Positions 33,254 to 49,090 of a stretch of 64,000 nt of DNA are shown here, piece after piece; within the stretch, counting starts at the first letter, position 1; every line of letters begins with the position of its first letter. The notes under the pieces were generated by a model. It was not told the origin of the DNA. It made no database searches and worked only from the letters and a program-made list of their open reading frames with translations. This stretch comes from Gallionellaceae bacterium (lineage in GTDB: Bacteria; Pseudomonadota; Gammaproteobacteria; Burkholderiales; Gallionellaceae). The stretch is from the NCBI GenBank assembly GCA_041660815.1, contig JBAZVN010000013.1:6662-70661 (forward strand). Direction: 5' to 3'. The position numbers and the translations under genes were made by a program.

Positions 33254-35995
33254 ATGAAAATATTTCTGTCAATAATCCTTTTGTTTTTGAGTTGTATTTC
33301 TTTTAATGCAATCGCGCAGGACTCCGCTTCCTCCACCAAAGCTATTTTCTCCAAACAAATTTTTCTGCCCGAAGGCGTGCAAAAATTCTTGGGTAACAGC
33401 CCGGAGCGTTTGTATTTTTCTCAGGCAAATGGAGCAATTGTGGTGACGGACTTTGCGGGGAAGTCTGTGCAAACGCTGCAAGTAAAACAAGACAAAGAAA
33501 ATCTTTTAAGCAATCCGCTAGCCGTTGTGCAGGGACGGGAGATGCTTTATGTGCTGGACGGCGATCGCAAGCAAGTTCTCATGTTTACCCGCGATGGAAA
33601 ATATACCGGCAGTTTTGCCGCAAAAGAATCGCGATTTTTCAGGTTATCCAGTGAAGAGCATGAATTAAAGCAACCGGTTGGACTTGCGTATTTTGAAGGT
33701 GTTGTCTACGTGCTGGATCGGGATAGTAATAAAATATTACTGTTTGGCGATAATGGCGTGTTTCTAAATGTTCTTGCACTTCAGCCCTCGCTGGATCTTA
33801 AAGTTGCTAAAACACAGCGTGATAGTTACACGTTAAAAAAACCGCTGGATCTGAGGATTGACATCACGGGTCGACTCTATATTTGGGATGCGGAAGATTC
33901 TTTGATTAAAGTTTATAGTCAAGATGGGAATTTTATTTCTGCCACGGCGATTGAGGGCGAATTATCCGCGCTGGCTGTCGCTAAAGATGGCCTCTATATC
34001 GCAAAAAATAATGAACCGTTGGTGCAGAAATTCGACTTTAACAACACGACGCAATTCAAAATTGGCAGTAAAGAAAATGGCGGTGAGCCGCTCAAAAATA
34101 TTTCCGGGCTTGCGGTGGGTAAAGACCGGCAAATTGCCTTGCTGGATATTGAAAAATCCATGATGAATATCTATGTGGTGGATATGGGAATTCCCCTTGA
34201 AGCAATCCCGCGCAGTGGCGGTCGAGTGTTTGCGCAAAGTGCGGGAACGCTGCCTTTTGAAGTACTCAAGTTGGCATGGAATGGCAAAGATACAATTTAT
34301 GCAATCGATCCCGGGCAACAGCAAATATTACTAATTAAAAATGGCAAGCCGGAGGGCAATATCAGGTTAAAAAACTTCAATCCAATTGCGCTTGCGGTGG
34401 ATGCGGACAATGCGTTGTGGGTACTGGATAAAAAATCCGGCATCCATAAACTGGATGAAAGCGGGAAAGTATTGTTCAGCTTTGCTAACGGGGAAACAGG
34501 CGATGCAGAATTAGATACTCCAGCAGATTTGGCCATTTCTGTTTCGGGCAAATTATATGTTGCGGATAAAGGAAATGCTTCGGTACAGGTGTTTAGTCGC
34601 GAGGGCAAGTTTTTAAGTGAGATTAGTGGATTGGATGAACCTGACGCACTGGCAGTCGATAAAAATGACACTTTATTTGTCTTGGAAAAAGGCAAGGATG
34701 TGGTTTCAATTTATTCTGCTCAAGGCGTATTAGTTGGAAAAGTGGGTGGAACAAAAGAGCCGGGGGTAGGACGCTTGCTGAAGCCTGTCGCCCTCATGAC
34801 AAGTCTTGATGAAGTGTTCGTGGTGGATGGCAATCACATCAAAGTATATGCTACGCAGGGCGAATTTAAGCGCCTGTTTGGTGCCCGGGGAAGTCAGGAA
34901 GGTGAACTGAATGAGCCGTTGGCGCTTGCCCGCAAAGACGATATTTCTCTGCTGGTAGCCGAGCGCGGTAATAAGCGTATTCAATCTTTCATTACGCAGT
35001 TTAAACCGCCTGCACCACAGAATTTCCGGGCACAGGGCGGGGCACATAATATTTCTCTCAATTGGAATTTATCGGCGCTGCCGTATGTAAAGCAATATCA
35101 ACTGTACCGCTCCAAGGATGAGCGTCTCGGATTTATTAAAGTTGCCACCGTAAGCGGCAATCAATTTGTGGATCGCGGCTTGGAAGTGAACGGCAAATAT
35201 TTTTACCGGGTAGCTGCAGTGACCTCATCCGATTTTGAAGGCACCAGCAGTGCGTTGGTCAGCGCGGTATCTCAACGCTATACTCCGCCTGCCTTAAGTG
35301 CTGTCGAGGTGCAGAGCACACCGTGGAAAATCAAATTATCCTGGCGTCCAATTGAATCCGAGTTTGTTAGCTCATATTATGTGTATGAAAAAAAAGATTC
35401 TATATTCAGTAAATTAGCTGAGGTCATTGCGCCTGAATTTGAAAAGAACCTATTGCAACCCAATACCAAATACACCTATTACATCGCGGCACATAGCTCG
35501 GATGATACCGAAGCAGAAAAGTTTGCCGTGGAGACAAGCACCCAGCCTTTTGACAAAGAGCCGTTAAGTATCGGGATGCAAATAACCCCGGAAATCGAGT
35601 CGGAACATTTTTCTGAATATGAACAGGACGGGCTGGGAAAAGTGCTGCTTACCAATAATACCGACATGGAAATGCAGGGGGTGACACTGTCTTATTTCCT
35701 TAACGGATTTATGGAAAAATCCCAAGAGATCAGGCTGGAAAAATTGTCACCAGGTCAACCCGTTGAAGTTATTATGAAAATTGTGTTTAACAGCAAGATG
35801 CATAATGTGACGGAAGATATCGTTGCGCAATTTACGCTTGAAGCAAATTATTTATATATTGACAAACGTCAATCTTCCCTTAAAAATCTGCCGCTAATTA
35901 TAAAAAAGAAAATAGAAATAGCGCCTCTCGAACAGGTGGAGCAACCCAATCCACCTGTTGAGCAACTAGAAAAATCTAATCTTCCCGTAAATTAG
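33254..35995 (+). CDS. Secreted multi-NHL-repeat protein with two fibronectin-III domains and an uncharacterised C-terminal domain
   Basis: I prefer the ATG at 33254 (MKIFLSIILLFLSCISFNAIAQD signal peptide) to the TTG at 33215. There are more than 10 NHL-like repeats (e.g. LKQPVGLAYFEGVVYVLDRDSNKILLFGDNG, LDTPADLAISVSGKLYVADKGNASVQVFSREG). Fn3 segments include ISLNWNLSALPYVKQYQLYRS...YFYRVAAV and KLSWRPIESEFVSSYYVYEK...YTYYIAAH. Confidence 0.85.
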   Translation: MKIFLSIILLFLSCISFNAIAQDSASSTKAIFSKQIFLPEGVQKFLGNSPERLYFSQANGAIVVTDFAGKSVQTLQVKQDKENLLSNPLAVVQGREMLYVLDGDRKQVLMFTRDGKYTGSFAAKESRFFRLSSEEHELKQPVGLAYFEGVVYVLDRDSNKILLFGDNGVFLNVLALQPSLDLKVAKTQRDSYTLKKPLDLRIDITGRLYIWDAEDSLIKVYSQDGNFISATAIEGELSALAVAKDGLYIAKNNEPLVQKFDFNNTTQFKIGSKENGGEPLKNISGLAVGKDRQIALLDIEKSMMNIYVVDMGIPLEAIPRSGGRVFAQSAGTLPFEVLKLAWNGKDTIYAIDPGQQQILLIKNGKPEGNIRLKNFNPIALAVDADNALWVLDKKSGIHKLDESGKVLFSFANGETGDAELDTPADLAISVSGKLYVADKGNASVQVFSREGKFLSEISGLDEPDALAVDKNDTLFVLEKGKDVVSIYSAQGVLVGKVGGTKEPGVGRLLKPVALMTSLDEVFVVDGNHIKVYATQGEFKRLFGARGSQEGELNEPLALARKDDISLLVAERGNKRIQSFITQFKPPAPQNFRAQGGAHNISLNWNLSALPYVKQYQLYRSKDERLGFIKVATVSGNQFVDRGLEVNGKYFYRVAAVTSSDFEGTSSALVSAVSQRYTPPALSAVEVQSTPWKIKLSWRPIESEFVSSYYVYEKKDSIFSKLAEVIAPEFEKNLLQPNTKYTYYIAAHSSDDTEAEKFAVETSTQPFDKEPLSIGMQITPEIESEHFSEYEQDGLGKVLLTNNTDMEMQGVTLSYFLNGFMEKSQEIRLEKLSPGQPVEVIMKIVFNSKMHNVTEDIVAQFTLEANYLYIDKRQSSLKNLPLIIKKKIEIAPLEQVEQPNPPVEQLEKSNLPVN

Positions 35996-36081
35996 GGGGC
36001 GGGTGAGTGGATGTAATAAATTTGCCGCCGGTGTAGTATGGCGAACCAAAATATGAAGTTCAATCATTTTTAGGGAATGAA

Positions 36082-49038: not shown

Positions 49039-49065
49039 CTATATGATTATTAAGGAATTAATTAG

Positions 49066-49090
49066 CCGCCCTTCGGGGCGGTTAATTTTT
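49066..49090 (+). terminator. Strong intrinsic terminator closing the 33254..49038 operon
   Basis: CCGCCC-TTCG-GGGCGG followed by TTAATTTTT. Confidence 0.8.

Follow-up and report, generated by a model that had tools for sequence, protein, structure and literature searches.

Here we have analysed a 64,000-nt stretch of a Gallionellaceae genome (assembly GCA_041660815.1, contig JBAZVN010000013.1; hereafter the window), focusing on five consecutive + strand genes, g1 to g5, and above all on the pair formed by g2, a Slam/DUF560-family outer-membrane protein (OMP), and its downstream neighbour g3 (Table 1). A preliminary description, made from the sequence alone, had presented the five genes as a single operon of exported proteins built around a putative type 11 secretion system (T11SS). 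Its reading of the open reading frames (ORFs) and of the short gaps between them (86 nt for g1-g2, 62 nt for g2-g3, 63 nt for g3-g4 and 1 nt for g4-g5) holds, as does its claim that every product carries an export signal. As assigned by eye from the translations, these are Sec-type signal peptides on g1 (MKIFLSIILLFLSCISFNAIA/QD), g2 (ending ...LGNVSA/AE), g3 (...SLPEAQA/AI) and g4 (...TVTTGYA/VT), and a lipobox-like signal on g5. No catalytic domain was found in g1 to g5 by Pfam or NCBIfam, in keeping with the same description; the only families above cut-off in the unit are NHL, fn3, TPR families, SlipAM and FecR.

The right-hand boundary is set by an intrinsic terminator whose hairpin, AAUUAGCCGCCC-UUCG-GGGCGGUUAAUU with the GC core GCCGCCC/GGGCGG, folds at -20.3 kcal/mol (z = -3.1; 0 of 200 shuffles equally stable). 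A closing terminator had been claimed at 49066-49090, and the hairpin found here begins at 49060; a consensus terminator scanner made no call at 49060-49090, though hairpin and U-run are both visible in the sequence. At the other end, panD stops at 33178, leaving a 75-nt gap to g1 that is similar to the gaps inside the unit, so that the sequence does not fix where transcription of the unit starts. The order panB-panC-panD-g1-OMP-g3 is kept in a related strain (L081) at 80-90% nucleotide identity. A second contig bearing g5 (L082) is 100% identical to the window and thus offers no independent evidence. At NCBI, g1, g4 and g5 are listed as hypothetical proteins (WC742_11800, WC742_11815 and WC742_11820, respectively), whereas the exact sequence of g3 is not in the protein collection; this could reflect differences in repeat length or gene start between assemblies.

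Table 1. Features of the five-gene unit and of its surroundings in the window; T2SS/T4P, type II secretion system/type IV pilus; aa, amino acids.
Feature	Position	Strand	Basis or remark
g1, exported NHL beta-propeller protein with two fn3 domains, 913 aa	33254-35995	+	ATG start, upstream TTG at 33215; NHL 71 bits, fn3 37.6 bits
g2, T11SS (Slam/DUF560) OMP, 499 aa	36082-37581	+	PF04575, TPR, AlphaFold2 model, NCBI name
g2 signal peptide	aa 1-28	+	Disordered linker follows to about aa 70
g2 TPR helices	36298-36687 (aa 73-202)	+	Seven helices, AlphaFold2
g2 predicted 14-strand barrel	36694-37578 (aa 205-499)	+	AlphaFold2; C-terminal F
g3, predicted T11SS cargo, 1,883 aa	37644-43295	+	Non-lipidated; Sec signal peptide aa 1-27
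g3 FecR-type domain	37731-38243 (aa ~30-200; Pfam match aa 62-147)	+	PF04773 34.2 bits, cut-off 24
g3 IRGTD motif in FecR domain	38061-38075 (aa 140-144)	+	Gly-Thr dipeptide retained
g3 low-complexity spacer	aa ~215-400	+	Lys/Glu/Ala stretch including (QEAK)n, then Pro/Ala
g3 12-nt tandem repeat, 19.3 copies	38364-38595	+	Tandem Repeats Finder; encodes (QEAK)n, perfect frame
g3 eleven tandem ~48-aa repeats	39192-40754 (aa 517-1037)	+	jackhmmer self-search; motif ...GKNVTVTDAATLAELASI...
g3 handle/barrel module A	40815-41567 (aa 1058-1308)	+	hmmsearch, A3 profile 68.3 bits
g3 handle/barrel module B	41826-42461 (aa 1395-1606)	+	hmmsearch, A3 profile 60.5 bits
g3 predicted C-terminal handle + 8-strand barrel (module C)	42603-43292 (aa 1654-1883)	+	A3 profile 252.8 bits
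g4, exported protein, 1,775 aa	43359-48686	+	C-terminal NHL propeller aa ~1450-1775; NHL 32.9 bits
g5, putative lipoprotein, 116 aa	48688-49038	+	TTG start; ...LTMGMAG/C
Intrinsic terminator	49060-49090	+	Hairpin 49060-49087 into U-run 49086-49090; closes the unit
T2SS/T4P-like gene set	49143-57704	+/-	Starts right after the terminator; all scores below equivalog cut-offs
GspF/PilC-like platform protein	49143-50351	+	T2SS/T4P-like set
PilB/GspE ATPase	50650-52341	-	T2SS/T4P-like set
Pseudopilin with N-methylation motif	52862-53260	-	T2SS/T4P-like set
GspD/PilQ-like secretin	53250-55280	-	T2SS/T4P-like set
PilO/T2SSM_b-like protein	55822-56367	-	T2SS/T4P-like set
PilN-like protein	56372-56911	-	T2SS/T4P-like set
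Third large NHL-repeat protein, 862 aa	5078-7666	-	NHL 87 bits

The product of g2, a TPR domain plus a barrel of 14 predicted strands, genuinely belongs to the DUF560/SlipAM family. It matches PF04575 (SlipAM) at 52.6 bits (cut-off 22) over profile positions 4-285 of 288, TPR families (TPR_19 at 46.3 bits and TPR_16 at 36.4 bits) span aa ~85-185, and no other barrel family rises above threshold in Pfam or NCBIfam. The protein ends in ...DASLTLRLDF, the terminal LTLRLDF having already been remarked upon. An AlphaFold2 model built with 57 homologues (predicted local distance difference test, pLDDT, 86.1) comprises seven helices and 14 long strands (aa 205-498), most of the latter at pLDDT > 90, with a short insert after strand 1; 14 is the count that had been expected for a Slam. 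In a Foldseek comparison with the PDB, the matches with the highest template modelling (TM) scores are likewise 14-strand barrels (OmpG at 0.72, CymA at ~0.63, and FadL); a solved Slam structure was found in the PDB neither by sequence nor by fold search. The PF04575 match, the strand count and these fold neighbours together favour the DUF560 family over barrels of the YaiO/BcsC/PgaA type, the profile comparison that the preliminary description had proposed as a check. Furthermore, g2 is 100% identical to a protein from a Gallionellaceae metagenome-assembled genome (MAG) that NCBI names 'surface lipoprotein assembly modifier'.

The adjacent g3 carries an N-terminal FecR domain, which had previously been overlooked, followed by a low-complexity spacer, eleven tandem repeats and three handle/barrel modules, A to C. 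The FecR domain begins at about aa 30, straight after the cleavable signal peptide, and has no match among PDB sequences. In common with the FecR, FoxR and PupR anti-sigma factors it is a PF04773 domain with the conserved Gly-Thr motif, here within IRGTD. This dipeptide is the autoproteolytic site of FoxR/FecR-type anti-sigma factors, and a cut at the corresponding position of g3 would release an N-terminal fragment of ~115 aa. Unlike those proteins, g3 lacks both a cytoplasmic anti-sigma domain and a transmembrane helix, and neither an extracytoplasmic function (ECF) sigma factor gene nor one for a TonB-dependent transducer is adjacent; indeed, no sigma factor gene was found at the locus, where the neighbours are panD, g1, the OMP gene and g4. 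We considered an anti-sigma role for g3 and rejected it, given the cleavable signal peptide and the lack of a sigma factor neighbour.

The preliminary description had further proposed that g3 ends in a barrel of the TbpB type. The C-terminal strings it cited are present verbatim, the protein closing with ...VNGVAAFRE, and the proposal stands by fold model, Foldseek and hhalign, and falls short where a Pfam sequence match is concerned. We modelled the last 239 residues (aa 1645-1883) with AlphaFold2 on 37 homologous modules, obtaining a pLDDT of 89.4 and a predicted TM score (pTM) of 0.86, with a beta-rich region at aa 1-104 of the segment followed by eight strands at aa 119-238. In Foldseek against the PDB, ranks 1-19 are all HphA, TbpB or fHbp, each of them Slam/T11SS cargo, with E-values down to 8e-5; the best match is HphA of A. 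baumannii (7re4), and the TbpB matches (3pqs, 4o49, 5kkx) come from several species, one being an isolated C-lobe. Rank 35 (E 3.5e-2, probability 0.66) is taken by PmSLP (9b3e), a surface lipoprotein that was deposited as Slam-dependent. The fold evidence draws its weight from the fact that the top PDB matches are exclusively cargo.

In sequence searches, neither PF01298 (TbpB_B_D) nor PF08794 (FHBP_C) matched any g3 module in Pfam at E <= 10, and no PDB sequence matched the g3 C-terminus by phmmer or by the A2 and A3 profiles. The link to TbpB is carried by fold comparison and by profile-profile alignment. For the latter, two relatives of g3 (P0122 and P0163) carry PF01298, and in P0122 a canonical TbpB_B_D module (40.9 bits) lies immediately upstream of the same C-terminal module. 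When the handle/barrel family profile (A3) was compared by hhalign with the corresponding upstream module of P0163, the two aligned at a probability of 70% (E 4e-5), with the motifs ISGT..Y, L.A.FT..TV and G.F.G.F.G in register. Fold and remote homology thus support a handle + 8-strand barrel of the TbpB/HphA/fHbp type at the g3 C-terminus, and module C is presumed to be the T11SS targeting domain of g3.

Conservation across genomes sets g2 and g3 apart from the other three genes. We collected 80 related loci by scanning a genome collection with an OMP alignment; these come from Gallionellaceae, Sideroxydans, Gallionella, Ferrigenium straubiae, Rhodoferax and Georgfuchsia, as well as from Nitrosomonadales, Burkholderiales and Gammaproteobacteria MAGs. 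The parts of the unit were searched in all of them by tblastn, and the partner gene was then classified more strictly. By tblastn, the FecR region of g3 is matched in 76 of the 80 loci (45-70% identity), g1 in three (L001, L002 and L012, in each case a few kb upstream of the OMP), the ~48-aa repeats in L010 and L012 only, and g4 and g5 in none; the most conserved feature of the OMP partner gene is its N-terminal FecR domain. In the stricter classification, three loci leave no room for a further gene on the contig; among the remaining 77, a gene for a FecR protein starts <=700 nt downstream of the OMP gene in 74, usually within ~60 nt. This gene encodes FecR plus 1-5 modules (537-2,336 aa) in 42 loci, is a complete FecR-only ORF (mostly 264-298 aa) in 27 and is cut by the contig end in five, while three loci have no adjacent FecR gene (two of these have one nearby). 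All module-bearing ORFs in the loci belong to the FecR-protein gene, which in L017 and L035 is split into adjacent fragments. The flanks of the pair differ from locus to locus and contain housekeeping genes such as purB, mnmA, radC, groEL, dnaE and proS, which makes the conserved linkage specific to the OMP and the FecR protein. A survey of the five-gene order, suggested earlier, therefore returns this pair alone.

The handle/barrel family itself is large: an exhaustive profile search of 1.84 billion representative proteins returned 1,819 clusters with E <= 1e-3, and 408 when the limit was E <= 1e-30. Its members reach 3,351 aa and contain 1-8 handle/barrel modules per protein, and of nine that were sampled, six begin with a FecR domain. 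The 1,883 aa of g3, initially seen as exceptional for a non-lipidated cargo, therefore make it a large but ordinary member of its family.

Several further features accompany the pair in other genomes. The FecR-only partners (L045 11324-12148, L053, L065, L076 and others) consist of a signal peptide, the FecR domain and a Pro-rich tail. A conserved lipoprotein of 506-630 aa (LTACGGG...GTDFYLTLPDHLC...) is encoded directly upstream of the OMP in eight loci (among them L045 8325-9845, L053 8316-9896, L014, L026, L055, L065 and L076; in L071 a copy lies after the FecR gene instead). This lipoprotein does not match the handle/barrel profile, and all of these loci except L014 are of the FecR-only type. 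A second DUF560 OMP paralogue (~470-500 aa) occurs just downstream of the pair in L043 (8004-9410), L063 and L065.

Taken together, g2 and g3 are likely a module of two genes for type 11 secretion in an environmental clade. Slam1 has been described as an autonomous translocon that recognises unfolded cargo, held by Skp, via a C-terminal motif (PMC9090332), and HrpB/HrpC perform the same kind of translocation for a soluble cargo (PMC8406197). By analogy, we infer how g3 may be recognised, translocated and finally placed. Both proteins would be exported by Sec; g2 would form its 14-strand barrel in the outer membrane, leaving the TPR domain on the periplasmic side, and g3 would be held unfolded in the periplasm until g2 recognised its C-terminal handle + 8-strand barrel. 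From there g3 would thread its way through or along g2 and reach the cell surface or the medium. Once outside, it would expose its FecR domain, the helical/Pro-rich spacer, the eleven repeats and two more handle/barrel modules, regions that are most likely binding or adhesive. On this account g1, g4 and g5 would be exported proteins that share the transcription unit in this lineage only.

In the DUF560 sequence-similarity network, proteins like g3 are probably the cargo class of 'cluster 2', a T11SS group that is uncharacterised. DUF560 proteins of Gallionellales and of Sideroxydans lithotrophicus ES-1 (Slit_2212) fall into this cluster (Grossman et al. 2021, Table S1, PMC8406197), and the taxonomy of the window OMP and its 53-57% identity to Sideroxydans homologues suggest that it does as well. 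Cluster 2 is mostly aquatic and environmental (159 nodes, 79% of them environmental), and no member has been studied (PMC8406197). Published cargo predictions cover clusters 1 and 3 only; in the marine cluster 3, barrel-type cargo was rare (PMC12282271). That work names FecR solely in its supplement, where it is listed with sigma-70 and TonB families as co-occurring, and the main text mentions neither FecR nor NHL. Our literature search found no papers on Slit_2211 to Slit_2213 and none connecting FecR-domain proteins with T11SS cargo. What is new here is the cargo class and the tight coupling of OMP and FecR domain in an environmental clade.

Comparison with known systems places the pair more closely. 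With Neisseria Slam1/Slam2 and Xenorhabdus NilB/HrpB it shares PF04575, an N-terminal periplasmic TPR domain and a predicted 14-strand barrel in the OMP, together with an adjacent cargo gene whose product bears a Sec signal and a C-terminal 8-strand barrel. Those systems, however, belong to DUF560 cluster 1, whereas the window OMP comes from a free-living iron oxidiser and probably from cluster 2, and no TonB-dependent receptor or TonB gene was seen beside the window pair. Among soluble cargo, hemophilin, HphA and HrpC resemble g3 in being non-lipidated and Sec-exported with a handle and an 8-strand barrel, but they are ~240-270 aa long, consist of one module and bind haem; g3, at 1,883 aa, carries three modules along with a FecR domain, spacers and 11 repeats, and shows no sign of a haem site. 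Also similar are the predicted multi-TbpBBD 'Sphingomonas/Psychrobacter surface proteins' and Pls-like cargo, which have 2-3 handle/barrel pairs and long disordered or alpha-helical repeat spacers, the EEARKA of Pls resembling the (QEAK)n of g3, and some of which are soluble (PMC12282271). These belong to cluster 1 and pass Pfam TbpBBD thresholds, and none is reported with an N-terminal FecR domain. Indeed, non-lipidated and multi-barrel cargo have been documented or predicted (PMC8406197; PMC12282271), and the predictions for cluster 1 include both soluble cargo bearing 2-3 handle/barrel pairs and cargo of the Pls type whose spacers are helical repeats (PMC12282271), so that the size and modularity of g3 alone are not new.

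Several observations weigh against a two-gene module with g3 as its cargo. The TM-scores of the module C matches are modest, at 0.37-0.46, which plausibly fits two-domain proteins with a variable inter-domain angle, and the module lies below every Pfam and PDB sequence threshold. T11SS transport of a protein of ~190 kDa is not established, and the assignment of this OMP clade to the T11SS comes from sequence and structure prediction. Above all, 27 loci have a ~275-aa FecR-only partner with no module within 10 kb, so that the coupling may be between OMP and FecR domain rather than between OMP and barrel.

The conservation of the FecR domain and its stand-alone occurrence would suit a periplasmic partner of the OMP equally well. 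It is conceivable, though in our view unlikely, that the FecR domain is no passenger and instead stays in the periplasm as the OMP's partner or anchor, for instance by binding its TPR domain, with only the C-terminal modules exposed at the surface. The spacer would then cross the barrel and link a surface binding module to FecR, as a tether or surface-signalling device, and in FecR-only loci the domain would be a stand-alone accessory factor. In cell-surface signalling, FecR-type domains serve protein interaction in the periplasm, and the near-universal neighbour of the OMP is indeed this domain and not the barrel. FecR is also found near cluster 1 T11SS, with 201 occurrences and together with sigma-70 domains (PMC12282271, supplement). 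However, no sigma factor or transducer gene adjoins the pair in the window, the signal peptide of g3 is cleavable and no membrane anchor is present, known T11SS cargo is wholly extracellular at its end point, and a contact between TPR and FecR domains is conjecture. A related claim, namely that the T11SS OMP of this clade has the FecR domain rather than the barrel as its obligatory partner, we hold to be improbable. If true, it would mean a new surface-to-periplasm tether or sensor in iron-oxidising bacteria, and the ~275-aa FecR-only proteins would be an unrecognised periplasmic component of a supposedly one-protein secretion system.

That all five genes make up one secretion unit, with g1, g4 and g5 as further T11SS cargo or accessory factors, was the framing of the preliminary description, and we consider it distinctly improbable. 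Same strand, short gaps, a single terminator and export signals on all five products speak in its favour, as do the g1 homologues located immediately upstream of the OMP in L081, a close relative, and a few kb upstream in L001, L002 and L012. However, the handle/barrel profile, which matches g3, finds nothing in g1, g4 or g5 even with HMMER filters off. Conservation is also patchy for g1 and missing for g4 and g5: g4 has no homologue in a metagenome scan either, and g5 matches no family in Pfam or NCBIfam. What g1 and g4 do contain are NHL propellers, with matches to PDB NHL proteins at E 4e-31 and E 1e-22, respectively; the ~1,350 other residues of g4 lack a recognisable family, and a BLAST self-comparison of g1 and g4, which returned the self match alone, says nothing on internal repeats. 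The T2SS/T4P-like gene set that begins right after the terminator could provide an alternative export route for the NHL proteins, of which the window holds a third outside the unit. Given the lack of a cargo module, the patchy or absent conservation and this other route, we place g1, g4 and g5 outside the secretion module and treat them as lineage-specific exported neighbours that are not identifiable as cargo; the framing as a five-gene secretion operon is not supported.

Last, a TPR-porin for polysaccharide export (PgaA/BcsC/PelB type) beside an unrelated exported g3 is highly improbable: BcsC (TPR repeats, 16 strands) has the lowest E-value against the g2 model, PelBC also appears among the Foldseek matches, the NCBIfam BcsC model weakly matches the TPR region and some PgaA homologues have been assigned to PF04575 (PMC8406197), but the TM-score to BcsC is ~0.3 against 0.6-0.7 for 14-strand barrels, the modelled strands number 14 and not 16, neither a glycosyltransferase nor a synthase gene lies alongside, and the neighbouring g3 bears the predicted T11SS cargo fold. 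Strand count, Pfam result and gene context likewise rule out g2 as a protein of the YaiO, PgaA or BcsC type.

A third large NHL-repeat protein lies elsewhere in the window, and exported NHL propeller proteins seem to be common in this genome. Within 59178-62902, a PgfS/ArnC-like glycosyltransferase follows a membrane protein of 899 aa that carries a PTPS_related domain (PF10131), which suggests a pair related to glycosylation or exopolysaccharide and unrelated to the T11SS pair.

Experimentally verified cargo is limited to cluster 1 T11SS of animal-associated bacteria, and the cargo of environmental T11SS has been a gap. As a predicted two-gene secretion module, g2 and g3 would, with their relatives, fill it concretely for another large environmental clade. 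The cargo there would be a protein family numbering at least 1,800 clusters at 50% identity, in which one to eight handle/barrel modules are combined with a FecR domain at the N-terminus. Standard domain models miss these modules, and the proteins are consequently annotated as hypothetical. The pairing of OMP and cargo is testable, including in cultured hosts such as Ferrigenium straubiae KS (L079). It would also put a much higher size limit on possible T11SS substrates and raise the role of a FecR domain in a system thought to need the OMP alone. One conjecture is that Fe(II) oxidisers may use g3 at the cell surface, perhaps to bind minerals or metals or to adhere.

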